Positions 4,049 through 32,018 of a DNA stretch of 64,000 nt are shown here, one piece after another. The position numbers were made by a program, and so were the translations under genes. Source of the DNA: a virus; IMG/VR virus record IMGVR_UViG_3300044800_000286; one strand, written 5' to 3'. The notes beneath the pieces were generated by a model. That model was not told the origin of the DNA and did no database searches. It was given only the letters and a program-made list of their open reading frames with translations. The stretch's first letter is position 1. Each line of letters opens with the position of its first letter.

Positions 4049-4453
4049 CTACCATGCCTCGCCTCGCCTCGCCTCGCCTCGCCTCGCCTCGCCTCGCCTC
4101 GCCTCGCCTCGCCTCGCCTCGCCTCGCCTCGCCTCGCCTCGCCTCGCCTCGCCTCGCCTCGCCTCGCCTCGCCTCGCCTCGCCATGCCCTAGTCCTCCAC
4201 CAAAAAATCTCGTTCCTGTCCTACCCACCCGATGCCACGGCACGAACACCATCTTCGTCTGGATACTCACCCTCAGGTCTTCCGCTCTCGGATCGCTCCA
4301 CCAATAACCACCCGCTTCCCGGATGTTTTCCAGCGTCCGCTGGGCAGCATCAAAATTAGGCCAAGTCTGCTCGTAACTGTGATCCCCAGCACGGTCCTGA
4401 ATGTAAAGCGTTACTGGCATGCGTGCTTCAATGAACGGCCGCACTTCGGACAA
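4049..4453 (-). CDS. hypothetical protein with a microsatellite-encoded (GEARR)n tail
   Basis: Unique N-terminal ~90 aa followed by the in-frame pentamer repeat. Confidence 0.55.
   Translation of the reverse strand: MSEVRPFIEARMPVTLYIQDRAGDHSYEQTWPNFDAAQRTLENIREAGGYWWSDPRAEDLRVSIQTKMVFVPWHRVGRTGTRFFGGGLGHGEARRGEARRGEARRGEARRGEARRGEARRGEARRGEARRGEAW
4056..4180. repeat. perfect (GCCTC)25 microsatellite
   Basis: 25 identical copies counted directly, with degenerate copies on both flanks. Confidence 0.95.
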
Positions 4454-6687
4454 AGCCCTTTGCTCATCAGTTCCTCGGCCCGCCCCCGTTCCGCTTCAAC
4501 AGCAGCATCATGCAGGGCCTTCTGCGTGCCGGCCAAATCCGACTGCGCGGCGGAAAGCTGCTCGTCGATCTCGGCCAGTTTCCCGGCCGTTTCCTTCAGT
4601 TCCTTCCGCAGCGCAGCCGCATTCTCTAGGAAGGTAATACTGCTCTGAAGCCGGGTTAGCTCATTTACCGGGATTTCCGTGCGGAATGTCGCCAAGTCCC
4701 CGGTGTCGAATTGGCTTTCGATCAACGTAGCTGTTTCAGCTAAGGCCTTGATCTGCTTCCACAAAGCGTAAATCCCGTTCCATTTCTCGGTGGCGGCCTC
4801 GATGGCTTGGAGCGGCTTGTTCATCCAGCGGGCGAACGTGTAGGCGAAAGCCGCCCGCTCCGCATGAAGCGCAAGCTGCTGAAGCCGCTCGACTCCCGTG
4901 GTGTCGGGCAAGATCAGGGCTTCTACGATACGTTGCAGGGGCTCCAGCCGCAGGCAACGGGCCGCACACTCCACCAGCCAATAGGACTCGATTTCCAAGT
5001 GGCGGGCGGCGGACTCCAAAGCCTGTAGCTCTTCGGCCAACTCGTGGGCTTTCGCGGACATCTTCTCCAGCTTCGCCTTGCGCTCCTCGGAGTTGCGTAT
5101 CTGGGCCGCCAGCACGCGGGCCTCGCCGTCCTTCTGTGTCTTCAGGAGGTTGGCCTGCTTCTTCCCGGCCTCCAGCTTCTCCGTGCCGCCGAAAGCGCCG
5201 AGGATGGCGTTGATCTCGCTCGGCTTGTAGGTCTTGTTGTCGATGAGGAACTGCGGACGGTTCTGGCTGGCGAAGATCGGGTCGAAAGTGAAATCGCCGA
5301 TCTTGATCTCGCCCAGATTGAATTTCTTGACAATCTCCGGGATGTCCCCGTCAAGCTTGGAGAACTTGTCCTCGCCTATCGTGTAAGCGACGGAGCCCCG
5401 CTTCGAGCGGGTGGCAACAACGGTGTGCCCGTCGTGTTCGAGCGTAAGCTCAAGGGGCTCGTCCTTGGGATCGCGGATGTACGCCACGTCAAGCTCGTTG
5501 CGTATGATGCCCTGCAAAGCCCTGTACAGCGAACTGTTGTGGGCTATGGTGAAGTCCCCCAGCAAGAACAATCCGTCGCCATCAAGCTCAAAGCCAAAAT
5601 ACTCCCCCCATCCGGCAGATGTGGCATGGAACCCTGTTGTAAGAGGATTCTTACTTGAATCGTGCTTGGCTTGTTTACGTTGAATGCGGGTGGGAATGCT
5701 GGTCAATTCGCCAGCGATCCTCACTCGAAAATATACCCCTCCCCTGCCGTTCTGGTCTTCCTTTTTCGAGGGTTTTACCGATGCTCTGAAACCAAGGGAT
5801 CGAGCAATAAACGCAGCATCGTCCGCCAATGCCTTTAGTTTTGATACAAACTCAAACTGCTTTTGACCCTCTAGGTGGCCATCGGAATCCAGCAAACCCG
5901 CCAACAACAACATGCGATCACGGCTGCTGGCGGTTTTGTATTCCCAAGAGAGGCGTTTTTCCCCATCCACGACAAGGCCTAAAGAGCGGAATTTCGACAA
6001 CAACGCATTCTGCGAGTGTCCTCTCTTGGGAGCAACCCACTTCCTGCCGCCGCTGAAGACCCATGTGCTTGCTTTGTTGCCTTTCTTACCATTTCTCCGG
6101 AGCCTCAGGTTAAACTTGTCAGCGACTTTATTCAGATAGTCAAGCACTTCTTGGTCTGCCGTCGTAATCGCCAGAGAATGTAAGTTTGTGCTGCCGTCCC
6201 CCAGCCATAGACCAACGAAATATGGATTAAACACTTCACGATTACACGGGAATGTTATGGCGGAAGAACGCTGAAGTCGGGCAGAGTTGCGAAACCATTT
6301 CCCTCGGCACACTAAATCCCTAACTTCTATTTCAATTGGGTGTCTATAGGATGGGCATTTGCCCTGCAATTTCTTCCCGTTGAACTTAAGAGGTAAGATG
6401 TGCCTACTGTTGCAGCGCCAACGGTCGCCTTTTTTGGGGATGATATCATACATCTCGTCCCAGCCATGAGCAAGACTCAACACTCTGCGGGGTTTGGAGT
6501 CCGGCCCCATGAGCAAATCGCTGACCTGAACGTCTTCAACGTTCTTGATAGTTCCGTCATACATGAACACAGGAGTGCCCTTGGCTAGGCATTTCCCCTC
6601 GTTTGAGGGACCGATGAGTATGGTCAGCCCTTGTATGTCCAGTTCAAATGCTGGCCATGGCTGGAAATTTTTGCCGCTGAATTTCAT
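4411..6687 (-). CDS. SbcC/Rad50-like ATPase, N-terminal half, intein-containing
   Basis: MKFSGKNFQ...LTILIGPSNEGK|S (Walker A), Q-loop FASQ, coiled coil, ends at zinc hook CPKC; start moved to ATG 6687. Confidence 0.85.
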   Translation of the reverse strand: MKFSGKNFQPWPAFELDIQGLTILIGPSNEGKCLAKGTPVFMYDGTIKNVEDVQVSDLLMGPDSKPRRVLSLAHGWDEMYDIIPKKGDRWRCNSRHILPLKFNGKKLQGKCPSYRHPIEIEVRDLVCRGKWFRNSARLQRSSAITFPCNREVFNPYFVGLWLGDGSTNLHSLAITTADQEVLDYLNKVADKFNLRLRRNGKKGNKASTWVFSGGRKWVAPKRGHSQNALLSKFRSLGLVVDGEKRLSWEYKTASSRDRMLLLAGLLDSDGHLEGQKQFEFVSKLKALADDAAFIARSLGFRASVKPSKKEDQNGRGGVYFRVRIAGELTSIPTRIQRKQAKHDSSKNPLTTGFHATSAGWGEYFGFELDGDGLFLLGDFTIAHNSSLYRALQGIIRNELDVAYIRDPKDEPLELTLEHDGHTVVATRSKRGSVAYTIGEDKFSKLDGDIPEIVKKFNLGEIKIGDFTFDPIFASQNRPQFLIDNKTYKPSEINAILGAFGGTEKLEAGKKQANLLKTQKDGEARVLAAQIRNSEERKAKLEKMSAKAHELAEELQALESAARHLEIESYWLVECAARCLRLEPLQRIVEALILPDTTGVERLQQLALHAERAAFAYTFARWMNKPLQAIEAATEKWNGIYALWKQIKALAETATLIESQFDTGDLATFRTEIPVNELTRLQSSITFLENAAALRKELKETAGKLAEIDEQLSAAQSDLAGTQKALHDAAVEAERGRAEELMSKGLCPKCGRSLKHACQ
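5536..6591 (-). mobile_element. intein with LAGLIDADG homing endonuclease (352 aa) in the SbcC Walker A
   Basis: K|CLAKGTPVFMYDG ... FLLGDFTIAHN|S; VGLWLGDG and LAGLLDSDG motifs. Confidence 0.92.
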
Positions 6688-6902
6688 TAGAAGTCTGACC
6701 CACCGAGGCTGTATCCCACGGTGTCCGTATCGATCCACTCCGCACCACAGCCGGGACATGGATAAAGAGGGGGATCAAGCCCCAAGAACCCCGTGGACGA
6801 GAGATTCGCCCCGCAGCTGGAGCAATAGGCTCCGCCGTTGCCCTGATCGGTAACGACGTGCAGGCGATAGACTTTTTCTTCATCTTTGGGTTGCATCTTC
6901 AT
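6687..6902 (-). CDS. small zinc-ribbon protein
   Basis: CSSCG...CPGCG; overlapping start/stop with both neighbours. Confidence 0.65.
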   Translation of the reverse strand: MKMQPKDEEKVYRLHVVTDQGNGGAYCSSCGANLSSTGFLGLDPPLYPCPGCGAEWIDTDTVGYSLGGSDF

Positions 6903-15944: not shown

Positions 15945-18725
15945 CTACAACTTCTTCATGTCAATGATGGAGTCTACCCACCAACGCGACAGTTTTCTGC
16001 GGTTGCGGGCGAGAAAGCTGCGAAATCCAGCATCAAGAATCCAGATGTGGGCTTTATCTGTTTTTGAACGCACCACGCGGCCCGTCATTTGAATCAGCTT
16101 GAGACCCGCCAACCATTGATACCAGTCGGGGTCTTTTTGCATTCGGGCACGAATATAAGGTGTGAGGGGGGCGAAGGGGATTTTTACGACAATGCAGAAA
16201 CGTGCCAAGTCTTCTTTCAGGTCCAAGCCTTCCGACATTGAGGGCGAGAACAAAACTGTGGGGCTATCCATATCGGCATAATGCTGCTCCACGGCAGCCT
16301 CACGACTGCCTTTCACGCCACTGCTGTGCGTCAATACACGATCAGCTTGAGCGGTCGTGCCGAGATAATCCACAAGATACTTGTTGGTACGGAAGCTTTG
16401 GCAGTGCACTAGGCCCTTGTACTTGCCGTAGCGAGTCATAAGGGCTTCGACTTTCTTGGCCATCAGGGGCAGGGTCCTGTCGATGTTCTTGTAGCTCATG
16501 TCGCCCACTTCGTCGAAGAATATCGGGCGGTTCTCAACAGGAAACTCGCTGTCCATAGCGAGGACTTCCGCGTCGGCGGGGTCGATGCCGAGGTTGCGCA
16601 TAAAAGTTTCGAAGTCCAAAATCGTGGCTGACATAATTAAAATCTTGCTCGCCTTACAGAAGAGAATCTGATCGGCGAACAGCCGGGCGGTGAGCGGCTT
16701 GATAATGAGATCACCTGTGCCCCTCTTCTTGTTCTCGTCCCAATCACTGTAGGCGAACCATTCCTCCGGCTGCTCGGCGTTGGTAAACAGGGCGATGCGG
16801 CTTAGGAACTTGTCAGTAGCGTTGATCTTTTTGGCAACCTTGGATTTCTGCTCGCTATCTCCGGCGTCACGAGCCTTCTGGAGATCGGTACGATACTGGC
16901 GGTATTTTACCTGTGTGGCGGGGACGAAGATGTTATTGAGCCATTCGCACACGTGAGCGGTATCGCCCTCGTGGAAAAGCGGCAGCCGCCCCGCCTCGTG
17001 TTCGTCGCATTTCTTCTGCGTGATGTTGGTGTCGGTGAAGCCGAGGATCAAATCTTCCGTGCCGTGGGCTTCATCCAAAATCAATAATGTGCGGTCGGGA
17101 AGCTGGTGCGCTGTCGTGGTCTCAGCAAGATAGTATGCGAAATTCGTCACAGAGAGGGGGCTGCCGATGAAGCGGGCCTTGGCTGGCTTGTACCCGTGGC
17201 AGGTCTCGTGGTTGTGCATGTCCTCGAACACGAGGCTGGCGGACTCGCAGTCCATGTCGAACTCAGGGCAATAGTAATTCGCCTGACCCCGGAGTTCCAC
17301 GAGACCGTTCTTCTCAAAGTCACCCATCAATTGCTCCGTGAGGACTTTTTGCGGGGAGAGATAATACGCCCCCGGCTCATAAGCGCCATAAGTGGGAAGG
17401 GTCTTCGCATAGGAGCCAGCGGCGATGCCTATACCAGAATTATGTACTACTGTGAAATCGCCGAGAAGGAAGCGACCGTTGCCGTCTACAAAAAAGCCGA
17501 AATACTCGCCTCGCCCCGCTGGCAACACCTTGATGCCCGTGACAAGTGGGTCTTTCTTTTGTTGCCGAGGAGGACTCTGTTTACGTTGGAGAATAGACGG
17601 GATACTTTCAATCCCCACCCCAGAGGATACTGAAATTCTCCAATACTTTCCGACGACTGGACCGTCTTTGGCGTTTGTGCAAGTCTTCTTGCACGGTTTC
17701 ATATAAGCGGCAAAACCCAAGGAACGACAAAGATAGGCCACATCCTCGGCAAGTTGTTTGATTTTAAAAATAAACCCATACCCACCATGAACTATGTGAT
17801 GCCCATCAGAGTCAATAAGCCCAGCAAAAACACGCATGCGAGTCTCACGGGAATTACATTTATAAGATTGCGGGATATGCTTGTTGTTCAAAAGATCGAG
17901 ATCACGCAACATACTAAGCAGGGGATTTTTCTTGCGGCTTTTTGGATCACCGCCGCGCTCCCCGGTAGTTAATGAAAATGTGTAAGCGTTGTTATGAAAG
18001 TATGAGTTGACCTCCAACCCGAGAACGCTAGCGTAGCCGGACAAAAATCCACTGATCTCAACGTCCGAACTTGTAACTTCGGGGCGGTCACTTGTACCAT
18101 CACCCAGCCACAACCCCAAAAAGTACGGATCAACAGTAGTGGGTTGCCACGGGAACGATACTTCCGTACGAAACCCCTTCAAAAGATGTTTCTGTGTCTT
18201 AGATAAAGAACGATAATCCTCCAACGGAATATCCGCAACCGTATTCGATACTGCTTTGATCCCTAACTTGCGAAATTGTGGCACTTGGGATTTAGTGTAA
18301 ATTCCCTTGGTCTTGGTACCCCCCGTGAATTTCAGGCTAAGAATGTGCTGGGAATTGACTGTGTATTTGTCCCCCTTGATCGGAACTACATCGTACATTT
18401 CATCAAAGCCGTGAGACAAAGAAAGTACTCGTCGGGGCGTCGAATCGTTGCCCATGAGCAAGTCCCCAATGCGTACATCTTGCACTTTTTTGATTGTACC
18501 GTCGTACATTAAAACAAGAGTATCAAGACAAAAACACTTGCCCCCTCCGGTCGGAATTTCAAGGATGCAAAACTTCTTTGGACCGAGCAGCCAATGACTT
18601 ACAAGCTTTAATGCTTGTTCCTGCACTGGACGAATCTCCTCAAATGGAAAATGATCCGTGATGGTGCGGGACATCTCGCGGGTCAGATTCACCGACGCTG
18701 GCGCTGCTGCGGTTTCTTCGCTCAT
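15945..18725 (-). CDS. DinG/XPD-like SF2 DNA helicase, intein-containing
   Basis: Q-motif IRPVQ, PTGGGK|S, DEAH, MSAT, EGLD, QMTGRVVRS; start moved to leaderless ATG 18725. Confidence 0.9.
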   Translation of the reverse strand: MSEETAAAPASVNLTREMSRTITDHFPFEEIRPVQEQALKLVSHWLLGPKKFCILEIPTGGGKCFCLDTLVLMYDGTIKKVQDVRIGDLLMGNDSTPRRVLSLSHGFDEMYDVVPIKGDKYTVNSQHILSLKFTGGTKTKGIYTKSQVPQFRKLGIKAVSNTVADIPLEDYRSLSKTQKHLLKGFRTEVSFPWQPTTVDPYFLGLWLGDGTSDRPEVTSSDVEISGFLSGYASVLGLEVNSYFHNNAYTFSLTTGERGGDPKSRKKNPLLSMLRDLDLLNNKHIPQSYKCNSRETRMRVFAGLIDSDGHHIVHGGYGFIFKIKQLAEDVAYLCRSLGFAAYMKPCKKTCTNAKDGPVVGKYWRISVSSGVGIESIPSILQRKQSPPRQQKKDPLVTGIKVLPAGRGEYFGFFVDGNGRFLLGDFTVVHNSGIGIAAGSYAKTLPTYGAYEPGAYYLSPQKVLTEQLMGDFEKNGLVELRGQANYYCPEFDMDCESASLVFEDMHNHETCHGYKPAKARFIGSPLSVTNFAYYLAETTTAHQLPDRTLLILDEAHGTEDLILGFTDTNITQKKCDEHEAGRLPLFHEGDTAHVCEWLNNIFVPATQVKYRQYRTDLQKARDAGDSEQKSKVAKKINATDKFLSRIALFTNAEQPEEWFAYSDWDENKKRGTGDLIIKPLTARLFADQILFCKASKILIMSATILDFETFMRNLGIDPADAEVLAMDSEFPVENRPIFFDEVGDMSYKNIDRTLPLMAKKVEALMTRYGKYKGLVHCQSFRTNKYLVDYLGTTAQADRVLTHSSGVKGSREAAVEQHYADMDSPTVLFSPSMSEGLDLKEDLARFCIVVKIPFAPLTPYIRARMQKDPDWYQWLAGLKLIQMTGRVVRSKTDKAHIWILDAGFRSFLARNRRKLSRWWVDSIIDMKKL
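17439..18536 (-). mobile_element. intein with LAGLIDADG homing endonuclease (366 aa) in the helicase Walker A
   Basis: K|CFCLDTLVLMYDG ... FLLGDFTVVHN|S; LGLWLGDG and FAGLIDSDG motifs. Confidence 0.92.
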
Positions 18726-18731
18726 GTCCTT

Positions 18732-18760
18732 AGTATACGGCAGACCGGGAGATTTTGCTA
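18732..18760 (-). promoter_or_regulatory. sigma70-like promoter TAGCAA-N17-TATACT (leaderless)
   Basis: Member of a repeated promoter family; ATG 6 nt after the -10. Confidence 0.65.
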
Positions 18761-18835
18761 CTTTTAAGCTGTTTAAAACAAACAACTTGCATGCATTTTA
18801 TGGCCGAAAAGTCACCAATTGCACATAGCCTAATA

Positions 18836-21682: not shown

Positions 21683-23344
21683 TTATCCGTTTCCTACTAG
21701 CGTCAAGCAAATATCCGCGAGCGTTGCGTCCGCCGTGCCCGGACCATCAACCTCAAGAATATCCGAAGCGCTGAAGCTGATCGCGGAGGCTTGCGTGTAC
21801 GTGCCCGTTTCCCCCGCCGGAGGACTGCCCGTTTCGCTCCCGAAGACGCATGTCGCAAACGGAACGCCGTTCTTGCTGAACGAGAAGGTCGTGCCGAGGG
21901 TCGCTCCCGTGCCCGCGGTCGCGAGCGAGAGCGTGGCATTGATCGGGAAGGTCATCGGTATTCCGAGGGGTCCACGGAAAAGTATCTGGCTGTCCGTGCC
22001 GACGCCCGGAGCGAAGATGCACAGCGGTTTCGGGACCGCGGGCAATTCCAGCGTGATGGGATTCGTGCCGCCAACCGTGATCGAGGAGTTGGGAGAGGTG
22101 ATGGTCACGGAGCCGGTCTCGGTGTTGAGGCTGCTGACGCCGGCGCTTCCGCCGCCCGCGGGAACATTCCAAGTCCCGTCCGCCCTAAGAAAATATGTCG
22201 CCGCCTCGACGGCGGTGGAGGCGGGAACGAGACCTGCGACGCCGCTCGTCGGGGGGGAAGCCACGGCTCCGACGAAGGTCGGGACCGAACCCCATGCCGC
22301 TGCTGTTGGGCTTGACGCGACAAGAACTTTACCCGCCGAAGGCGCTGTAATGGAAATGACCACGCCGTTCAGATCGAGCGGACCTGTGATTCCGACGCTT
22401 CCCGCGGTGAGTCCTCCGGTGATACTCACAGTTGCATTAGCAGACCCGATGTTGATAACTTCTCCGGAATGAACAGTTCCAATGCCTATAGTGCCGGCGT
22501 CCAGATAGGCGGTGCCTGAAAGAGCCCTTATTGCTACCCCGTTTGCTCCCGTGGCGCTCGCGGAAATGATGATGCCGCCCACACCAGCGTTACTCTCCGT
22601 GATGTTGATGCCAGAGGTGGAGTTGTCGGCGATGTTGAGACCCAGGTTGGCGGAGTTCACCGTGGCTGGGAGAGTTACCGTGCCTGTGAAGGTCGGTGAA
22701 GCCGATGGTGCCGCCCCAAGATTGATAAGCGCCTGCGCTCCGGTTGTAGCTGCCGTGCCGCCCTGCCCGATCTGCGCGATGCCCGAGATGCGGGAGAAAT
22801 CGTTGAACCCGGCGATGAACAAGACCCCGACGGTCCCGCTGTTGTAGCTCAGGACGTACCCCACGGACTGCTCCGGGGCTGGAGGACTGAGGGGACGAGT
22901 AAGAGTGATCCCGCCCTTGTCAACGGCGGACAAGTAGACTTCCTGCCCGATGCTTGAAACGCTGAAGTCGCCATGCGTGTCGGCGTAGTAGAAGATGCCG
23001 GAAAAGGCAACGGTGACCGGGCTACCGATGCCAGCAGTCTGACTGACGAATCCGGAGGCCAGCACAGGATACGAGCCTGACGGCGGAGTACCTGTTGTGC
23101 CAGCATAAGCAAGCTGCACGTACAGTGTACTGCCCGACTCATAGAGGTTCACGAGGTTGCCGGAGAACAAAGCCTCGCCCGTTGTCGCCACGGTGCCCAG
23201 TTGCAGCAATGTAGAATCAACGACACCGTTTGAATTCAGGGCGACCGGAGCGCCCGGCACGCCTGGCCCGACAACCGCGGCATAGGCGACATCCACGAGG
23301 TTCGTGAGCGGGTTGAATACGCAAATCTGTGTTGGATTAGTCAT
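21683..23344 (-). CDS. tail fibre or structural protein
   Basis: GGTAATT..AL.NLG, SPTFTGTV, FLRADGTW and GVSSLN fibre-type motifs; start moved to ATG 23344 (ATGA coupling). Confidence 0.7.
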   Translation of the reverse strand: MTNPTQICVFNPLTNLVDVAYAAVVGPGVPGAPVALNSNGVVDSTLLQLGTVATTGEALFSGNLVNLYESGSTLYVQLAYAGTTGTPPSGSYPVLASGFVSQTAGIGSPVTVAFSGIFYYADTHGDFSVSSIGQEVYLSAVDKGGITLTRPLSPPAPEQSVGYVLSYNSGTVGVLFIAGFNDFSRISGIAQIGQGGTAATTGAQALINLGAAPSASPTFTGTVTLPATVNSANLGLNIADNSTSGINITESNAGVGGIIISASATGANGVAIRALSGTAYLDAGTIGIGTVHSGEVINIGSANATVSITGGLTAGSVGITGPLDLNGVVISITAPSAGKVLVASSPTAAAWGSVPTFVGAVASPPTSGVAGLVPASTAVEAATYFLRADGTWNVPAGGGSAGVSSLNTETGSVTITSPNSSITVGGTNPITLELPAVPKPLCIFAPGVGTDSQILFRGPLGIPMTFPINATLSLATAGTGATLGTTFSFSKNGVPFATCVFGSETGSPPAGETGTYTQASAISFSASDILEVDGPGTADATLADICLTLVGNG

Positions 23345-25026
23345 CGTGTTCTCGCTGGCCACTGCATCCGCTTGTGCTTGAATTCCTTCAGTTCCGGGAA
23401 GTCGTTCTCGGCATCGGCATCGACCAGTTGGTTCGCCGGGTTCCGCGGCGTGCGGTCGAACTTCGGGGAGTTGCCCTGGTCCCAGAGGTTGGGGCTGCGG
23501 CTCTCCTGCTCGCCGGGCTCCATTACCTGGCCGCTGTTGTGGACAAACACGCCAGCGGACAAAGCAAAATTGTGATATTTGTCTACAGAGATGTCGTACA
23601 CGTCCGCCGTACCCCAATGCGTAACCGAAACCACCTTATGGTTCAAGAATGAAGAACACAGTCCGCATAGGGGGCTGACAGTGCTTCTTTTAACATGCCA
23701 GCGGTCCTGGTTAGTTCTCATCCTAACTTCATCCATGTGCTTGCGGTGATTCGGGTCACTCCAGACTCTTTTTGCTTTCTCTTTCATGCGAACCGAGCTT
23801 TGCTGCCTAAAATCAGCATCCTGCCATAGACTTTTCCACAACTTGCTTTGCCGCTCGCCCGACTTTCTCCCGCCTTCTTCGGACTTGTTCCAAGGTACGA
23901 GTTGCGTTTTGCCTCGTTCAGCGGCTCTTTTACGGTCTTCCTGAGAAAGATTGACTTTCGGTACTCGCTTAAAGGGTGTCGGCTTTCCCGCCCACTGAGC
24001 GTTGAGCCTTAGCATATTTTGCCCGCGCGCCATTCGGGCCTTCTCGGTGACAATTGAGCCCCCCAAGCTCTGATGCAGCTTCAAATGGTCTTCCCATTTT
24101 ATCAACATCAGATTGTCGGGAGAATTGTTGAACCTGTTCAAATCCTCGTGGTGGCGAACATAGCCCTTGGGACAGCGGGCTTCCGCAAAACGGTGCGTGA
24201 ATTTCCAAGAGTCGTCTCCCGGCTGATAGGTGGTTTGATACTTATTGCCTCCAGCTTCCAATGGAGCCGAATCTCGATACAACGGCATGAGAGAATCCCC
24301 GGTCTCAAGCAATTCAGCCGCTTTGTACTCACCGTTTCGCATCAAAAACGGATGGTTAGGGGTGCATTTTATAGTTTCGCCGTTATCCAATGTCACCGCC
24401 AGAACGGCTGCGTCCTTTAGGGTTAGACGAGCAGAATGCCCAAGCCCTGGCCTGAGCAGACCCCCATCATTGAGCGAGTAGACCCAAAATTTATTCCTTC
24501 CGACAAGATCGCTCATGGCGACCTCAGTTCCGTCTAGCAGCGGAACCTTAGTATCTCCCGTCAGACAAATGTCGTATCCGTAAGCCGTGACGCGCTTGCT
24601 GCTTTTCTTGATCGCGAGGGCGGTGAGCCCGTCAAGGATGCCGCCGATCTTCAGGAGCGAATACGATGCGTGGGCGGCTGCGGATTTGTAATTCTTTTCC
24701 GCGGCGTACCGCACCGCAGCCTCGAAATCGCGTTGCGCATTTTGCAGCATGCGGAACATGTCCGGGCGGTTCGGCACCTCTTTTGCGGCTTTTTCCAGCC
24801 CGAGGATAAGCTCCCGGAGATTCGGCTCGGTCTCCGCGAATAGCTGTTCGTCCGCGGGGTTGTCTTTCCAGAGAAGGAAGATATCATCGTAGACGCCCCG
24901 CAAGTAGCTGATCTCCCCCGGCCACATGGCGCTGGACTGGAGAAGCTCGCTCCGGAACCGTGGGGGGGTCTGGAGCGGGGCTAGCCCCGAGGCGGACAGC
25001 TTGGCGATGGAAAGGCGTACAGGCAT
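23341..25026 (-). CDS. hypothetical (possibly virion) protein containing an intein
   Basis: Exteins total about 217 aa with no recognisable enzyme motif; GGGAG RBS before ATG 25026. Confidence 0.75.
   Translation of the reverse strand: MPVRLSIAKLSASGLAPLQTPPRFRSELLQSSAMWPGEISYLRGVYDDIFLLWKDNPADEQLFAETEPNLRELILGLEKAAKEVPNRPDMFRMLQNAQRDFEAAVRYAAEKNYKSAAAHASYSLLKIGGILDGLTALAIKKSSKRVTAYGYDICLTGDTKVPLLDGTEVAMSDLVGRNKFWVYSLNDGGLLRPGLGHSARLTLKDAAVLAVTLDNGETIKCTPNHPFLMRNGEYKAAELLETGDSLMPLYRDSAPLEAGGNKYQTTYQPGDDSWKFTHRFAEARCPKGYVRHHEDLNRFNNSPDNLMLIKWEDHLKLHQSLGGSIVTEKARMARGQNMLRLNAQWAGKPTPFKRVPKVNLSQEDRKRAAERGKTQLVPWNKSEEGGRKSGERQSKLWKSLWQDADFRQQSSVRMKEKAKRVWSDPNHRKHMDEVRMRTNQDRWHVKRSTVSPLCGLCSSFLNHKVVSVTHWGTADVYDISVDKYHNFALSAGVFVHNSGQVMEPGEQESRSPNLWDQGNSPKFDRTPRNPANQLVDADAENDFPELKEFKHKRMQWPARTR
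23536..24567 (-). mobile_element. intein with HNH endonuclease (344 aa)
   Basis: I|CLTGDTKVPLLDG, block B CTPNHPF, HHEDLNRFNNSPDNL (HNH), VYDISVDKYHNF...VFVHN|S. Confidence 0.9.
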
Positions 25027-25138
25027 AAGGCTCCCTATGAAGAGAGCCCAAAAGTTCAATCAAATCTAGGTGATGGCATACTGATTCCGGACTTCCTATA
25101 AATGCTTTCTCAAGTTCAAGATAACGTCCAACGGGGCC

Positions 25139-27009: not shown

Positions 27010-27084
27010 TGGCAGCCTCGATGGGTATCGATCCCACTTTCCGGCCTTGAAAGGGCCGTGTCCTAGCCAGTAGACGACGAGGCC
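27010..27084 (-). tRNA. tRNA-Glu(TTC)
   Basis: Cloverleaf; CGGCC-CU UUC AA-GGCCG; encoded CCA. Confidence 0.9.
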
Positions 27085-27090
27085 AAACTA

Positions 27091-27600
27091 TTACTCGAAC
27101 GTCCGCCCTTTGTAAAGAGCGGCCTCGTCCAAGAAAACCTGTCTAGTTCTTTTGGAGTGTTCTATGCGATGACAGATCGAGCACAACAAAACACACTTAT
27201 CTAACTCGCGCTTGATGTATTCCCAAGCTCGATTGGCGACTCCGCCAATCGTAAAATCCTTTTCACCTTTGCAGTGATGAAACTCCAGACCTGCGGGATG
27301 TTTGTCATACCCGCACTGGATGCATTTTCCACCAAGATACATAATGGCTGCGTTCTTCGCCCGAATACGGCGTATCATCGTGTTACAGGACTGACATCTA
27401 GTCCGATGCCGAATATTTTTTCCTAAACCCCCGCCACAAAGTTTACACTTTGAGGGAATAGGTGCCGCCATTCGTTTTGTTTTCAACCCCAATTTAGCCA
27501 ACCAGTACCGCACATTAGATTGGCAGGTGTTGAATTCATCAGCGATCTGACGCTGTGTCAAACCCCTTTCAATGGCTTGTAATACATCGGCACTGTTCAT
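27091..27600 (-). CDS. HTH + HNH homing endonuclease within the tRNA array
   Basis: N-terminal HTH; GGKCIQCGY...LEFHH...KCVLLCSICHRIEH. Confidence 0.85.
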   Translation of the reverse strand: MNSADVLQAIERGLTQRQIADEFNTCQSNVRYWLAKLGLKTKRMAAPIPSKCKLCGGGLGKNIRHRTRCQSCNTMIRRIRAKNAAIMYLGGKCIQCGYDKHPAGLEFHHCKGEKDFTIGGVANRAWEYIKRELDKCVLLCSICHRIEHSKRTRQVFLDEAALYKGRTFE

Positions 27601-27650
27601 TTGTATCTCCTTTGATGCTCTACCGTTGAGCTATATCTAAGGGATACAAA
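27600..27650 (-). promoter_or_regulatory. RBS-sequestering hairpin upstream of the HNH gene, with a tRNA D-arm-like loop
   Basis: UUUGUAUCCCUU pairs with AAGG(A)GAUACAAA; loop contains AUAGCUCAACGGUAGAGCA. Confidence 0.6.
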
Positions 27651-27660
27651 GTCAAAAAAT

Positions 27661-27736
27661 TGGTCCCAAGAGTGGCGCTCGAATCCACGTACTCCTGCTC
27701 TTCAGACAGGCGCTAATCCATCTCAGCTATCTTGGG
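27661..27736 (-). tRNA. tRNA-Phe(GAA)
   Basis: CCUGU-CU GAA GA-GCAGG; CCA. Confidence 0.88.
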
Positions 27737-27746
27737 TTCAAACTCT

Positions 27747-27822
27747 TGGTGCGCCCGGAGTGAATCGAACACTCCACCCCTGCCGTGTCAAGGCAGTGCT
27801 CTAACCGATGAGCTACGGGCGC
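27747..27822 (-). tRNA. tRNA-Val(GAC)
   Basis: CUGCC-UU GAC AC-GGCAG; CCA. Confidence 0.95.
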
Positions 27823-27826
27823 AAAC

Positions 27827-27863
27827 TGGGGGGCGGCTTATACAGTACCCTTTTTTGCCGCCC
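27827..27863 (-). ncRNA. 37-nt acceptor-stem microhelix ending in CCCA
   Basis: GGGCGGC/GCCGCCC 7-bp stem, 19-nt loop, discriminator plus CCA; same GUUU spacers as the tRNAs. Confidence 0.6.
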
Positions 27864-27867
27864 AAAC

Positions 27868-27932
27868 TGGACCGCCCCGTTTGCCTTGCGGCACCTAAGG
27901 TAGCTTCGCGAAAGCCACGATGGCCGAGACGG
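27868..27932 (-). ncRNA. 65-nt tRNA-like RNA ending in UCCA
   Basis: CCGUCUCG/CGGGGCGG stem; internal hairpins GUGGCUU/AAGCUAC and UGCC-GCAA-GGCA. Confidence 0.6.
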
Positions 27933-27939
27933 ATAAACC

Positions 27940-28016
27940 TGGTGGACAGGACACCTTAAGGATTTTACGCATCCCTTTAGCGGGGCGTTTCCCCTCTATG
28001 CGGACGCAACCCGCCC
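27940..28016 (-). ncRNA. 77-nt tRNA-like RNA with G3:U70-type acceptor and ACCA, no T-loop
   Basis: GGGCGGG/CCUGUCC-ACCA; internal hairpin AGGGAU-GCGUAAA-AUCCUU. Confidence 0.6.
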
Positions 28017-28023
28017 TCAAACC

Positions 28024-28097
28024 TGGTGGAGCCACGGGGATTCGAACCCCGGTTTCATCGCTGCGAACGATGTGTTCTCCCGCTGAACTATGGCCCC
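28024..28097 (-). tRNA. tRNA-Ala(CGC)
   Basis: CAUCG-UU CGC AG-CGAUG; G3:U70; CCA. Confidence 0.95.
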
Positions 28098-28103
28098 GAA
28101 ACC

Positions 28104-28310
28104 CTACAATTCGTACTTCACGATCCGACCCTGGGTGCTCGGATCATCCTGGAACTCGATCCAGTGCGCGTAGCAGTAGTGCAGCAGCATCCGGCTTAGC
28201 TCCTCGCTCCTCAGCGGATACTGATAATAGACCATGACGGCGTGGCTCGCCGGAGCGTCGCATCCGTCCGTCTTAGGATCGAACCACTGGCATTTCATGC
28301 CCACCGCCAA
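28104..28310 (-). CDS. small Cys/His-containing hypothetical protein
   Basis: Fills the gap between RNA genes; C..C..H..C..H. Confidence 0.5.
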   Translation of the reverse strand: MAVGMKCQWFDPKTDGCDAPASHAVMVYYQYPLRSEELSRMLLHYCYAHWIEFQDDPSTQGRIVKYEL

Positions 28311-28316
28311 ACTAAT

Positions 28317-28381
28317 TGAGCGGACTCACCGTTTCCGGCTACGGTCCATGTTCTCTTTCAAGCCCAGTTCGCCTTCCGCTC
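28317..28381 (-). ncRNA. tRNA-like RNA with a 7-bp closing stem, no encoded CCA
   Basis: GAGCGGA/UCCGCUC-A directly after the tRNA-Val(CAC) spacer; internal ACCGU/ACGGU hairpin. Confidence 0.45.
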
Positions 28382-28386
28382 AAACT

Positions 28387-28462
28387 TGGTGCGCCCCGCT
28401 GGAATTGAACCAGCGGCCTCTCGCGTGTGAAGCGAGCGCTCTGACCGCTGAGCTAGGGGCGC
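28387..28462 (-). tRNA. tRNA-Val(CAC)
   Basis: CUCGC-UU CAC AC-GCGAG; CCA. Confidence 0.95.
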
Positions 28463-28647
28463 GAATTCAGCAGGCCGAAAAGCTGGTCGGTCGCCGTGTT
28501 CAGCAAAAACAGCGGGGGCGGCTTCAGCGGCTCCGCCCTGTGCCTCGCTTCAAGCTGCGCCTTGTACACGACGAGGTGCTTGTAAATCTCCCGGAGCTTG
28601 TGCTTCGGCACCGCCATCGTTGCCGTCTCTACCTTCGTCTTCTTCAT
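28453..28647 (-). CDS. small basic hypothetical protein (64 aa)
   Basis: GAGGAG RBS; stop lies inside the 5' end of tRNA-Val(CAC). Confidence 0.6.
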   Translation of the reverse strand: MKKTKVETATMAVPKHKLREIYKHLVVYKAQLEARHRAEPLKPPPLFLLNTATDQLFGLLNSRP

Positions 28648-28664
28648 CGTCTCCTCAAAACCCT

Positions 28665-28738
28665 TGGAGCGGGCGATGGGAATCGAACCCACGTCCGTAG
28701 CTTGGGAAGCTACTATACTGCCATTGTACGACGCCCGC
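28665..28738 (-). tRNA. tRNA-Gly(CCC)
   Basis: GUAGC-UU CCC AA-GCUAC; U73 CCA. Confidence 0.95.
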
Positions 28739-28746
28739 TCAAATCT

Positions 28747-28822
28747 TGGTGGACCTGATGGGATTCGAACCCACGACCTCCTCGATGCCATCGAGGCGCG
28801 CTCCCAACTGCGCCACAGGCCC
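28747..28822 (-). tRNA. tRNA-Ala(GGC)
   Basis: CCUCG-AU GGC AU-CGAGG; G3:U70; CCA. Confidence 0.95.
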
Positions 28823-28828
28823 AAAACT

Positions 28829-28905
28829 TGGTAGCCCGGACGGGGCTTGAACCCGTAATCTTCACCTTGAGAGGGTGACGAGTTAGCCAGTTACTCTACC
28901 GGGCC
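28829..28905 (-). tRNA. tRNA-Glu(CTC)
   Basis: UCACC-CU CUC AA-GGUGA; CCA. Confidence 0.93.
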
Positions 28906-28917
28906 GAACTCAAAAAC

Positions 28918-28991
28918 TGGAGCGGGGTACGGGACTCGAACCCGTTTCTCCACCTTGGAAGAGTGGTACACAACCCATATGCCAACCCCGC
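28918..28991 (-). tRNA. tRNA-Gly(TCC)
   Basis: CCACU-CU UCC AA-GGUGG; U73 CCA. Confidence 0.92.
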
Positions 28992-29000
28992 GCAAAACTT

Positions 29001-29323
29001 TGTGTCAGACCGATAAGCCGGGTTCTGTCTGGGACAATCATTCATCTATGACGTACATCGCTGCACGCCTCAAGCTCCCAACCCGCCGCTTGGTAACGCC
29101 CCGAGCAGGGGCTCACGGCCTATTTGGGATTGCTCCGCATGGAGGTTGCCCGTTTCACCCGCACGGTTTCTGCTTGGCAAGCATAATACCGTGCGACTCG
29201 TCTCTGTTGCCCTATTCGTCATCCGGCCTTTCAACCAAACGCCCAGCCGTTAGCTGGCATGCTGCTCTGTGGAGCCCGGACTTTCCTCCCCCATTGCTGG
29301 CGGCGATTGTCTAGCCTGACACA
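29001..29323 (-). ncRNA. rnpB: RNase P RNA (compact bacterial type)
   Basis: P1 UGUGUCAGGC/GUCUGACACA; CR-I GAGGAAAGUCCGGGCUC; CAACAGAGAC; GGUGAAACG; GGAGCAA; UAGAUGAAUGAUUGUC; CR-V ACAGAACCCGGCUUA. Confidence 0.95.
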
Positions 29324-29328
29324 AACTC

Positions 29329-29403
29329 TGGAGCACCCGGTCGGTGTCGAGCCGACTCGTAACAGTTTTGCAGACTGCCGCGTTCCCGTTTCGCCACGGA
29401 TGC
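29329..29403 (-). tRNA. tRNA-Cys(GCA)
   Basis: GCAGU-CU GCA AA-ACUGU; U73 CCA. Confidence 0.92.
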
Positions 29404-29409
29404 AAATTT

Positions 29410-29484
29410 TGGCGGTGCCAGCGGGAGTCGAACCCGCGCTTCTACCGTGACAGGGTAGTGTCAGTACCGCTTGACCATGGCACC
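29410..29484 (-). tRNA. tRNA-Asp(GTC)
   Basis: CUACC-CU GUC AC-GGUAG; G73 CCA. Confidence 0.93.
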
Positions 29485-29523
29485 GCATTGTCCGAAGCGC
29501 ACATCGTTCTTCAGACACAAACT

Positions 29524-29597
29524 TGGTGGACCTGAGGAGAATCGAACTCCCAATTCAGCCTTGCAAAGGCCGCAGTTTCCCGTTAGCATACAGGCCC
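29524..29597 (-). tRNA. tRNA-Ala(TGC)
   Basis: CGGCC-UU UGC AA-GGCUG; G3:U70; weak D-stem. Confidence 0.88.
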
Positions 29598-29869
29598 ACA
29601 ATCTGTTCCCACGACAAACCCAAATACTTCATGCACCAATGGACTGCTTTGTGGCAACGAAAACACAATCTCACAAACTCCCCACTTTTCATCTCAATCT
29701 GGTGTTCTTTCTCTCCCATTGATTCAAATCTCTTGTGTTCTTTACCATCTTTTCGATGCGCAACTGATCTCTTTGAATAACTACAAAAGAAACACTCTTT
29801 TCCAAGATTTGTATCAACTATCGCTCGCTTTCGGTCCCTTCGCTTCTTATTCCACTTAGCAGTCGCCAC
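29555..29869 (-). CDS. small HNH-like zinc-binding protein overlapping tRNA-Ala(TGC)
   Basis: CFFC...AH...LCFRCHKAVH; AGGUGG RBS. Confidence 0.65.
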   Translation of the reverse strand: MATAKWNKKRRDRKRAIVDTNLGKECFFCSYSKRSVAHRKDGKEHKRFESMGEKEHQIEMKSGEFVRLCFRCHKAVHWCMKYLGLSWEQIVGLYANGKLRPLQG

Positions 29870-29895
29870 AAACCCACCTTGGATCGCCTAAACTT

Positions 29896-29969
29896 TGGAG
29901 CGGACGATGAGAATTGAACTCACGCCTGAACGTTGGCAACGTTCCGTACTACCACTATACTACGCCCGC
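29896..29969 (-). tRNA. tRNA-Gly(GCC)
   Basis: GAACG-UU GCC AA-CGUUC; U73 CCA. Confidence 0.95.
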
Positions 29970-29970
29970 T

Positions 29971-30046
29971 TGGTAGCCCCTGTCGGAATCGAACCGACGG
30001 CCCTTCGGGTGTAGACCGAATGCTCTGACCGCTGAGCTAAGAGGCT
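29971..30046 (-). tRNA. tRNA-Val(TAC) with atypical C33
   Basis: UUCGG-UC UAC AC-CCGAA; A73 CCA. Confidence 0.88.
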
Positions 30047-30061
30047 GCACAAAATATCGAT

Positions 30062-30147
30062 CCCGTCTGCACAGGGTTCCGAATCGAACGGGGAGGGAAT
30101 GACCCCCTTTGCTGGTCGCCTATGCCAGCCTGCCCTGTGCAGACAAG
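30062..30147 (-). ncRNA. tRNA-like RNA with a 12-15 bp closing stem, D-like arm and T-loop
   Basis: GUCUGCACAGGG/CCCUGUGCAGAC; GCUGG-CAUAGGCGA-CCAGC; CCG-UUCGAUU-CGG. Confidence 0.65.
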
Positions 30148-30150
30148 AGA

Positions 30151-30185
30151 ACAAAAACAAAAAGGACGACCTTTTCAGATCGTCC
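30151..30185 (-). terminator. attenuator terminator in front of the tRNA/rnpB array
   Basis: GGACGAUC-UGAAAA-GGUCGUCC followed by UUUUUGUUUUUGU. Confidence 0.85.
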
Positions 30186-30239
30186 TCGGAATCTCTTGGT
30201 TGGTTTCTGCTTATCCTTCCCAACCATCCTCCGAGGACA
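30181..30239 (-). promoter_or_regulatory. antiterminator hairpin, mutually exclusive with the terminator
   Basis: UGUCCUCGGA/UCCGAGGACG plus UGGUUGG/CCAACCA; uses 5 nt of the terminator 5' arm; its 5' strand is leader codons 33-39. Confidence 0.75.
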
Positions 30240-30336
30240 CGGTATCGGCCCCTGCCGCGAAGCCTTCAAAGGCTCCGACCGCGCATACGCCGCCCAAGGT
30301 GTCTGCGGCGGCGACGAATTGGAGACTGCGGTTCAT
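30211..30336 (-). CDS. 41-aa attenuator leader peptide MNRSLQFVAAADTLGGVCAVGAFEGFAAGADTVSSEDGWEG
   Basis: Below the ORF-track cutoff; contains a cognate codon for all 14 downstream anticodons; stop codon lies in the antiterminator loop. Confidence 0.8.
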   Translation of the reverse strand: MNRSLQFVAAADTLGGVCAVGAFEGFAAGADTVSSEDGWEG

Positions 30337-30356
30337 GTCTTCGGTACTCTCTATCT

Positions 30357-30364
30357 TGATACTG
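30357..30364 (-). promoter_or_regulatory. CAGTATCA promoter-like motif for the leader/tRNA operon
   Basis: Same motif precedes many minus-strand genes. Confidence 0.55.
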
Positions 30365-30392
30365 CGTATTCGGAAAACTCCCGGTTATTAAC

Positions 30393-30538
30393 GGAAGCTG
30401 CCCGGTAGGGAGTCAAAACCCTATCCGTGCCCGGATCGCAGCTTGCGCTGCGGCATCGCCCCGAACTATGCGGGGGCATTCTGCCGTATGATCCACTCCT
30501 GCGCAGGGGCGAACCACGTTAAACTACGGGCAGCTTCC
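30393..30538 (-). ncRNA. 146-nt expanded tRNA-like RNA
   Basis: 12-bp closing stem GGAAGCUGCCCG/CGGGCAGCUUCC, UAGUUUAA junction, CCCCG-CAUAGUU-CGGGG arm, two GNRA hairpins, T-like arm UAGGG-UUUUGACU-CCCUA; TTGACA promoter upstream. Confidence 0.65.
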
Positions 30539-30574
30539 CGTACTCCCTATCAATACCGCGAAAGCGGGAATCTT

Positions 30575-30614
30575 GTCAAGAACTATTTTTGGGAATTATC
30601 CCTTTAACTCCACA
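30575..30614. repeat. 40-bp dispersed repeat, copy 1 (includes the -35 TTGAC on the minus strand)
   Basis: 36/40 identical to 31385-31424. Confidence 0.85.
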
Positions 30615-30920
30615 AACTTCTAGCGTGGGATTTGGGTTACGTCGCAATTTCACTAAAGTGACGCCCTTGTCAGAACAATTTAACGTCGTGTACTTGATCC
30701 ACGAACGCAGGGACTTGTTGTGACGCAAAACTCGACGGATGCAAACGCCAAGGTAGCCTGTGTTCGTATTTATGAATCCGGGGATTATTCCTCGATTACG
30801 ACCGTGGCCGTGAATCAGCGTCAAACGGTCCTTGCCCGTCTCCCATGCCTGCTGCACAATCTTGTTGAGAATTCCATCGGTGATATCTGCCGGGAAGTAT
30901 CCGTGAAGGTCAATTTCCAC
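30576..30920 (-). CDS. Smr-domain protein
   Basis: EIDLHG and TLIHGHG Smr motifs; GGAGG RBS. Confidence 0.75.
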   Translation of the reverse strand: MEIDLHGYFPADITDGILNKIVQQAWETGKDRLTLIHGHGRNRGIIPGFINTNTGYLGVCIRRVLRHNKSLRSWIKYTTLNCSDKGVTLVKLRRNPNPTLEVCGVKGIIPKNSS

Positions 30921-30937
30921 TGTTTCCTCCTACTCCT

Positions 30938-30973
30938 AAAAAACTGCGGGGGGGACCGGAACTCAGTCCCCCG
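30938..30973 (-). terminator. intrinsic terminator
   Basis: GGGGGACUG-loop-CGGUCCCCC followed by CCGCAGUUUUUU. Confidence 0.55.
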
Positions 30974-31003
30974 TTCGTGTTACTCGCCTACCGCAAACAG
31001 AGC

Positions 31004-31249
31004 TTAGCAGACTAGTTTTTCTATTTCCGTTTTCACGCGGTAAAATGTGGCTAGGACTTGTTTCGATGTCATTCCCATTGCGCGCAAGCGGTGAAGTTGC
31101 GCCTTGGAATCGTTGACAAATTTGTCTCCCCACTCGCGCCCAAGTGGCACACCTGACGCTAGGGCGAGTTTAACGTGCGCCACGGAATCGTCAACAAATT
31201 TGTCTCCCGCGGCGTCTAATTGTTTTGCAGCGATTTTTGATTTGTTCAT
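31004..31249 (-). CDS. small hypothetical protein with an internal duplication (GDKFVDDS/GDKFVNDS)
   Basis: AGGA RBS; duplicated ~23-nt segment. Confidence 0.6.
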   Translation of the reverse strand: MNKSKIAAKQLDAAGDKFVDDSVAHVKLALASGVPLGREWGDKFVNDSKAQLHRLRAMGMTSKQVLATFYRVKTEIEKLVC

Positions 31250-31384
31250 GTTTTCCTGTTCTCCGGCGATTATCGCCTTTACCAAAACCCCAACTTTGTT
31301 GGGGCTTTTTACGATGGCGCAGAGCAGGATAAAAATTTTTGGTGATGCACCACCGACACAATAATGCTACAAACCACGAACCTC

Positions 31385-31424
31385 GTCAAGAACTATTTTG
31401 GGGAATTACCCCTTTGACTCCGCA
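31385..31424. repeat. 40-bp dispersed repeat, copy 2
   Basis: 36/40 identical to 30575-30614; partial copies at 31988-32012 (inverted), 32776-32803 and 36734-36754 (inverted). Confidence 0.85.
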
Positions 31425-31914
31425 GCTTCTGTTGATAAATGAGGACGGCTTCAAGATTACTAGCTATCGCACGGGCAGCGCCACCCCAGATGAGTCCGAC
31501 AGTGAAATTCGATGTGGGCGCATATGCATCCTGTTTCCCGTCCGCGTTGTGCCTCACGCAGTTCTTCCCTCCCTTGCATTCGACTTCGAGACTTGCGATG
31601 CTGAGTTCTGCAAACTCGATGGACCGCGCCGTGTCGAAATCCAAATCGGCAAGATAGGCGACTGTTTCGTTGTGCACGCCGCGTTTTCCCTGCGGGGCGT
31701 CATAGGTGAGGACCAGCTTGTCACCGACCACGGCAAGCCGATTGTTAATAACTCTGTTCGGGGTGTCAATAAGGTTGGAGTTGATCCTTGCCAACTCCTC
31801 GGTTTGCATCTGGAGATCGAGAGCCGGGAAAGATTGATCGGCTTGTTTCGAGCATCCGCCGACTGCGGTCACAATCGCCGTAAAGACTAAAGCTGCGTAT
31901 AAGTTGGTCTTCAT
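31393..31914 (-). CDS. predicted lipoprotein
   Basis: MKTNLYAALVFTAIVTAVGG|C lipobox; leaderless after TATACT-N6. Confidence 0.7.
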   Translation of the reverse strand: MKTNLYAALVFTAIVTAVGGCSKQADQSFPALDLQMQTEELARINSNLIDTPNRVINNRLAVVGDKLVLTYDAPQGKRGVHNETVAYLADLDFDTARSIEFAELSIASLEVECKGGKNCVRHNADGKQDAYAPTSNFTVGLIWGGAARAIASNLEAVLIYQQKLRSQRGNSPK

Positions 31915-32018
31915 GCCCACAGTATACAGCCGAGGAGGGATTTTAGCTAGCTGTATTGTGTTGAAAACAAGCTAGTTACAAGATACTTGTGGAGTTAAAA
32001 GGATAGTTTCTCTATTTG

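Follow-up and report, generated by a model that had tools for sequence, protein, structure and literature searches.

A phage-encoded RNase P RNA within a tRNA array that follows a predicted leader-peptide attenuator

The gene for RNase P RNA is regarded as cellular and near-universal and serves as a check of genome completeness, and the recognition of megaphages relied in part on their carrying only tRNAs and tmRNA (PMC8172020). The locus described here raises the question of whether a virus can possess an RNase P RNA of its own and what such an RNA would do for it. A preliminary description of a 64,000-nt stretch of IMG/VR record IMGVR_UViG_3300044800_000286, referred to here as the window, had proposed that a phage encodes an RNase P ribozyme inside a tRNA array, co-induces it under the same attenuator as the tRNAs, and probably borrows the RnpA protein of its host.

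Identity and structural conservation of the RNA

We searched the window using cmscan and obtained a match to the Rfam model of bacterial class A RNase P RNA, RF00010, at positions 28998-29322 of the minus strand (209 bits, E 2.6e-66, cut-off 100). The alignment covers model positions 1-367, which is the full model, and its score is about twice the gathering threshold. This search, which the preliminary description had proposed as a check, confirms that the window RNA is a bacterial RNase P RNA. P1 closes 29322 to 29002, so that the rnpB gene (29002-29322, minus strand) measures 321 nt from P1 to P1, and all five conserved regions (CR I to CR V) are aligned, as are P2, a short P3, P5 to P12, P15 to P17, and P18; the earlier reading of universally conserved blocks in ~323 nt was therefore correct. 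From the 5' end, the RNA presents CR I and the 5' strand of the catalytic P4 pseudoknot (29275-29288) with its bulged U at 29280, the 5' strand of the P6 pseudoknot (29263-29267), whose partner is the L17 loop at 29103-29107, and P8 and P9 (29218-29257), with a GAAA loop on P9 and a bulged A at 29219. The segment at 29152-29207 comprises CR II (29201-29207), P12 (29159-29196) and CR III (29152-29158). No P13 or P14 follows CR III: model positions 160-202 have no aligned bases, and P12 runs through GGUGAAAC directly into P11, as had been noticed from the sequence. The P15-P16-P17 region (29076-29129) includes the L15 GGU at 29081-29083, the pairing partner of the tRNA 3' RCCA, and the P6 pseudoknot with P16/P17, P18 and this GGU are all present. 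P18 (29050-29069) ends in a GCGA tetraloop of the GNRA type, J2/4 is short, and P19 is absent, the loop and the missing helix both being as first described. The 3' portion (29014-29047) holds CR IV (29039-29047), the 3' strand of P2, and CR V with the 3' strand of P4 (29014-29028). The RNA has a fold z-score of -3.1 relative to shuffled sequences and is present in a single copy in the 155-kb record. Two ORFs that overlap it, 28955-29314 on the plus strand and 29231-29518 on the minus strand, are taken as spurious.

Two other class assignments were considered and rejected. The RNA is not a bacterial type B RNase P RNA, given that P10.1 is absent, the gap between P10 and P11 is only 3 nt, P6, P16 and P17 are present, and the class A model wins the clan. 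Likewise, it does not have the canonical E. coli-like type A S-domain, in which P13 and P14 are stacked (PMC1874661); the positions of these helices are empty, and we classed the RNA as a P13/P14-less variant. Compared with RF00010 and E. coli M1 RNA (rnpB), the phage RNA has the same CR I to CR V, P1-P12 core, P4 and P6 pseudoknots, P15 to P18, L15 GGU, and GNRA loops on P9 and P18. It differs from these in lacking P13 and P14, in its short P3, in being encoded by a virus whose genome has no rnpA, and in lying between two tRNA genes with no promoter or terminator of its own found.

Selection on the structure was examined in 15 copies, 60-74% identical to the window copy, which were aligned with MAFFT; the structure was read from the window copy. 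Standard pairs are formed in 95.6% of the 1250 cells, and 52 of the 84 pairs have changed on both sides, that is, in a compensatory manner, among the 15 copies. The covariation score of 0.554 compares with 0.217 after shuffling and with 0.10 or less when the pairing partners are slid, the shuffle control not being a probability because the 15 sequences are related. Both long-range pseudoknots covary: 5 of the 8 pairs of P4 are compensated, with P4 100% paired and its bulged U invariant in the 15 sequences, as are 3 of the 5 pairs of P6, which is 90.7% paired. In P18, compensatory changes affect 7 of 8 pairs. A passenger in decay would not be expected to show such a pattern, which indicates that the structure is under purifying selection across the phage clade described below. 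Judged by these features of its sequence, the RNA is very probably an active ribozyme.

Phage origin, relatives and host

The IMG/VR record is a linear fragment of 155,256 bp, ~50% complete, with 27 tRNAs in addition to the one RNase P RNA. It encodes a baseplate wedge protein (phrog_6, E 2.4e-18), a tape-measure protein with an adjoining transglycosylase gene, and a portal homolog beside a DNA polymerase, and its GC content does not shift at the array. In two other studies, contigs identical to the record run across both the RNA and the attenuator (28787-31950 and 28665-31290); their depths are 17.7 and 9.5, compared with 14-15 and 7-10, respectively, in the flanks. Another contig, from a viral metagenome, covers most of the region, and in this single contig the G29236-C29225 pair of P9 is replaced by C-G. 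The region occurs in peat, pond and viral metagenomes. Given the uniform depth in independent assemblies, the region is not a chimera, and the chimera with host DNA that had been named as a refutation of a phage-encoded ribozyme is not borne out. The RNA is encoded by a tailed phage (Caudoviricetes), as supported by virion genes on the same contig and by syntenic relatives; a terminase (phrog_2) was found only in three complete relatives, and profile searches with Pfam Terminase_6N, sheath and Gp23 had no match in any record of the clade. The window also carries three intein or Hint/homing-endonuclease genes on the minus strand (4411-6759, 15945-18785 and 23341-25059).

A search of viral contigs with a 16-base CR I pattern gave 76 matches. 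In 22 of these contigs, which include a few duplicates, the RNA has at least three same-strand tRNAs within 2.5 kb, and 11 of the 22 were confirmed as RF00010. By comparison, none of 120 bacterial rnpB loci has more than two tRNAs in its vicinity. Narrower patterns yielded a clade of 17 distinct loci, the window locus included, in records of up to 463 kb, and in these the RNA lies in the same array of GNN-decoding tRNAs, usually after tRNA-Cys and before tRNA-Gly(TCC). The tape-measure protein is common to all seven records tested (89-463 kb, 25-31% identity), and records of 265-463 kb that share it hold the RNA in the same slot. Each of the 17 RNAs of the clade has all five conserved regions and the GGU motif of L15. 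A bulge motif between P17 and P16 occurs in 14 of the 17; the 102 bacterial and 35 other viral RNase P RNAs compared all lack it. A blastn search of GenBank returned no phage copy, only cellular-type matches, and the plasmid matches covered the core motif only.

Lack of P13 and P14 does not set the phage RNA apart, and the novelty lies elsewhere. The same direct junction from CR III to P11 is found in at least 120 prokaryotic genomes of Betaproteobacteria, Omnitrophota and Planctomycetia-labelled MAGs, and P13/P14-less RNase P RNAs, whose occurrence is not unusual, are also known from CPR (PMC8172020). In the five genomes checked (two Derxia, one other betaproteobacterial MAG and two Omnitrophota MAGs), the P13/P14-less RNA is the only RNase P RNA, indicating that the architecture supports life and that the deletion is compatible with function. 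The best bacterial identity to the phage RNA is 68%. In a tree of 154 RNAs, from which duplicates were left out, in which Acidobacteriota RNase P RNAs are not represented, and whose backbone is weak and bootstrap unsettled, the phage copies belong neither to the starred betaproteobacterial clade (100/99) nor to the Omnitrophota groups. The 16 P13/P14-less RNAs of the clade form one side of a branch at 46/99, by which their monophyly is neither established nor rejected. One member of the clade, record G008, has an RNase P RNA with P13 and P14 (L205:1501-1860, minus strand, 268.9 bits); this RNA occupies the same slot after tRNA-Cys and also has the bulge motif and a clade-like P15-P18 region. 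The loss of P13 and P14 is therefore probably convergent. The simplest reading would be one old acquisition by phages with a later loss of P13/P14, and a regain by recombination is possible.

We also looked for a protein partner of the RNA. The RnpA family (PF00825) is absent from the whole record, in agreement with the earlier remark that no rnpA-like ORF is visible in the window, and from nine other viral records, 4 of the 10 being rated complete. HARP (PF08745) is absent from five viral records, three complete relatives included. The RnpA of one bacterial species can stand in for that of another (PMC4919922), and from this we simply infer that the phage RNA uses the RnpA of its host, which is consistent with the lack of RnpA and HARP in three complete relatives. 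As for the host, Tunturiibacter phage Tunturi 5, a jumbo myovirus of Acidobacteriota (PMC11924767), gives the best cultured match for the DNA polymerase (44.8%, E 4e-125), the tape-measure protein and the portal (59% over 170 aa). These matches and the peat habitat suggest a host among the Acidobacteriota, and we assign it with moderate confidence as probably belonging to that phylum; HU homologs, cluster names and Atlas taxa gave no informative host signal. Tunturi 5 encodes 43 tRNAs; searches with the covariance model, with cmscan at E 0.5 and with an HMM of the clade detected no RNase P RNA in it. The gene is therefore accessory, and host RNase P can suffice. The tRNA array of Tunturi 5 contains a weak match to YrlA, a Y RNA-like RNA (L282:38901-39010, 29.7 bits, below the cut-off).

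The tRNA array and its leader-peptide attenuator

The RNase P RNA lies inside a tRNA array, as the preliminary description held. It begins 6 nt past the CCA of tRNA-Cys(GCA) (29329-29403) and ends 10 nt before tRNA-Gly(TCC) (28918-28991), and tRNA calls place both genes in an array of 14 tRNAs on the same minus strand (27010-30046). Twelve of the tRNAs decode GNN codons (Val, Ala, Gly, Asp and Glu), the others being tRNA-Cys and tRNA-Phe, and all of them encode CCA. Two further sets of minus-strand units are possible RNase P substrates: a tRNA-like, non-tRNA unit directly after the terminator (30056-30142), which was recognised in an MFE fold and has no Rfam match, and three small CCA-ended hairpin RNAs predicted at 27826-28018, which are spaced like tRNA genes. 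By eye, units similar to these CCA-ended or tRNA-like ones also occur in the relatives L014 (5676-5830) and L083.

Upstream of the array, the minus strand encodes a putative leader peptide of 41 codons (30211-30336). GNN codons make up 25 of the 41, compared with a genome background of 35%, and 14 of the 16 GNN codons are used. Two mutually exclusive hairpins are predicted at its end. The antiterminator (30181-30239, minus strand, -27.9 kcal/mol) has its 5' arm in the last nine leader codons, and the intrinsic terminator with its U-tract (30152-30187, minus strand, -17.1 kcal/mol) has a 5' arm that overlaps the 3' arm of the antiterminator. In fold predictions, the terminator forms once the region under a terminating ribosome is removed. 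Both exclusive folds are predicted in 13 loci and in 4 of 4 further loci that extend far enough, which were found via a motif of the RNase P RNA and not of the attenuator; part of the attenuator sample had been found with a motif taken from the attenuator itself. Leader and hairpins precede the array in all 17 loci where the region is readable. The leader peptides diverge in sequence and keep the same composition, and the hairpins show compensatory changes across loci.

The attenuator lies ~830 nt upstream of the RNase P RNA on the same strand, and a scan for sites found no promoter-like or convincing terminator-like site between the two. One terminator-like match, at 29257-29243, was rejected as it is helix P8. 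Given the absence of a promoter-like site between terminator and RNA, the attenuated transcript most likely includes the RNase P RNA, a reading of the anatomy of the locus that supports the earlier proposal of a shared attenuator and holds in 17 loci. A consensus scan did not identify the promoter of the leader. In the one peat metatranscriptome with the region (X20), scattered low-depth contigs cover the array and its flanking genes, one of them ending at 29309 and none covering the body of the RNA; as contigs can show neither level nor absence and DNA may be present in the library, they count neither way.

Several other elements were observed around the array and elsewhere in the genome. Directly following a TTGACA box and preceding the leader is an RNA of ~150 nt (30390-30540, minus strand) that is highly structured, with tRNA-like loops at both ends and no convincing Rfam match; the 463-kb relative L014 has a similar element at ~2160-2310. 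Just upstream of the attenuated array, a stand-alone Smr-domain protein is encoded at 30576-30920 on the minus strand (PF01713, above the cut-off). Smr nucleases can act in ribosome rescue. Blocks of Leu/Tyr and Pro/Met tRNAs (G000:C1:114700-115620 and 121800-125460) are each preceded by a sigma70-like promoter and a short leader ORF with matching amino acids. Outside the window, ARAGORN called a tRNA with a CTA anticodon, a possible amber suppressor (G000:C1:1659-1731, minus strand).

Proposed role, alternatives and precedents

We consider it likely, taking the whole chain of argument together, that the locus provides a functional, phage-owned RNase P RNA as an accessory component of an operon for inducible tRNA supply. 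When charged Val, Ala, Gly, Asp, Glu and Cys tRNAs are scarce, ribosomes would stall in the leader, which is rich in these six amino acids, or its translation would fail, and the antiterminator would form; a ribosome at the stop codon would instead mask the 5' arm, and the terminator would form. Read-through would yield one long transcript with both the tRNAs and the ribozyme. Existing host RNase P would then cut at +1 of tRNA-Gly and so free the 3' end of the RNase P RNA, and trimming behind tRNA-Cys would free its 5' end. Together with host RnpA, the RNA would provide extra capacity for 5' maturation, or replace host RNA lost during infection, and this added capacity would arrive as the burst of precursors appears. 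On balance, we lean towards the fuller statement that jumbo phages of one clade, whose hosts are probably Acidobacteriota, carry an active RNase P ribozyme in an operon that senses tRNA shortage, its codon-box-matched attenuator co-inducing spare tRNAs and their maturation catalyst as a self-amplifying counter to destruction of host tRNA or RNase P RNA.

Two alternatives accept a functional RNA and assign it another role. The ribozyme may not be gated by tRNA shortage at all: the array might simply be transcribed in the course of infection, or the RNA might have a promoter of its own, with the leader fixing only the timing or a basal level. Because the antiterminator has the greater predicted stability of the two hairpins, read-through could be the default; however, the composition of the leader matches the array in 17 loci despite divergence of the peptide, the exclusivity of the hairpins is kept with compensatory changes, and no promoter-like site lies between terminator and RNA, and we regard ungated expression as unlikely. 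Alternatively, the RNA could be an enzyme specialised for phage tRNA-like RNAs such as the CCA-ended mini RNAs, or a sponge that draws RnpA away from the host RNA. CCA-ended, non-tRNA units do occur in the same array and in relatives, and RNase P is known to process phage-induced RNAs (PMC4919922). Yet every copy keeps the GGU and the CR II/CR III elbow reader, as expected for ordinary pre-tRNA substrates, and a pure sponge would have no need of the covariation in P6, P8 and P15-P18. Both of these variants together strike us as quite improbable.

The remaining two alternatives deny the RNA a function in the phage. An inactive hitch-hiker, acquired from a host along with tRNA genes, would fit the accessory nature of the gene and its absence from Tunturi 5, but it is very hard to reconcile with copies that are 60-74% identical and show compensatory change in almost all helices, with bacterial rnpB loci that have two nearby tRNAs at most, and with the clade-specific bulge motif, present in 14 of the 17 phage RNAs and in no bacterial RNA out of 102, which points to long residence in phages. 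That the record is a linear fragment of about half a genome would leave room for an assembly chimera or for host DNA in a viral record. This we find barely credible, given that contigs from two other studies cross both RNA and attenuator unchanged at flank-level depth, that virome contigs cover most of the region, and that 265-463 kb records with the shared tape-measure protein, three of them with a terminase, hold the RNA in the same slot.

The reading that we prefer, an RNase P RNA in an attenuated tRNA operon, can be compared with known systems. Leader-peptide transcription attenuators include trpL, hisL and the multivalent ilvL. Like these, the phage attenuator has a short ORF rich in the sensed codons, an antiterminator arm in the end of that ORF, and an overlapping intrinsic terminator; unlike them, it precedes tRNA genes and a ribozyme rather than biosynthetic enzymes and samples a whole codon box (GNN). 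Large tRNA sets, accompanied by tmRNA or tRNA-processing proteins, are known from huge phages (PMC7162821) and Tunturi 5 (PMC11924767). The phage described here shares the large set with them, whereas RNase P is mentioned in neither of these two reports. No virus-encoded RNase P RNA was found in the full-text literature, including papers on huge phages, viral tRNAs, viral structured RNAs and Tunturi 5, in a search that covered subscription journals poorly. This is apparently, then, a known ribozyme in a viral, attenuator-linked setting that had no earlier description. A conserved viral RNase P RNA breaks the rule that this is a cellular gene, adds a ribozyme to the phage translation toolkit, and means that rnpB matches from metagenomes may come from viruses. 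Explanations offered for the tRNAs of phages are codon bias, decay of host RNA and anti-defence (PMC13359090), and the coupling of the array to a codon-matched attenuator makes the question of why phages carry them testable. If true, the proposed role would place a virus-encoded, tRNA-processing ribozyme under translational feedback control.

Related arrays hold further elements. Much shorter RNase P-like RNAs occur in the tRNA arrays of other phages (L013, L046, L038, L027, L025, L065 and L021), with a span of 165-223 nt from CR I to CR V compared with 275 nt in the window RNA. Upstream of the leader in three relatives lies a conserved RNA-like element of ~150 nt with the motif GTGAATAGCC (L014 ~1520-1660, L083 ~2330-2470 and L084 ~1110-1250). 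Inside the array of the 463-kb relative, an ORF (L014 2737-3440) resembles, by eye, a short glycyl-tRNA synthetase catalytic domain, and L083 retains a remnant of the start of this ORF.
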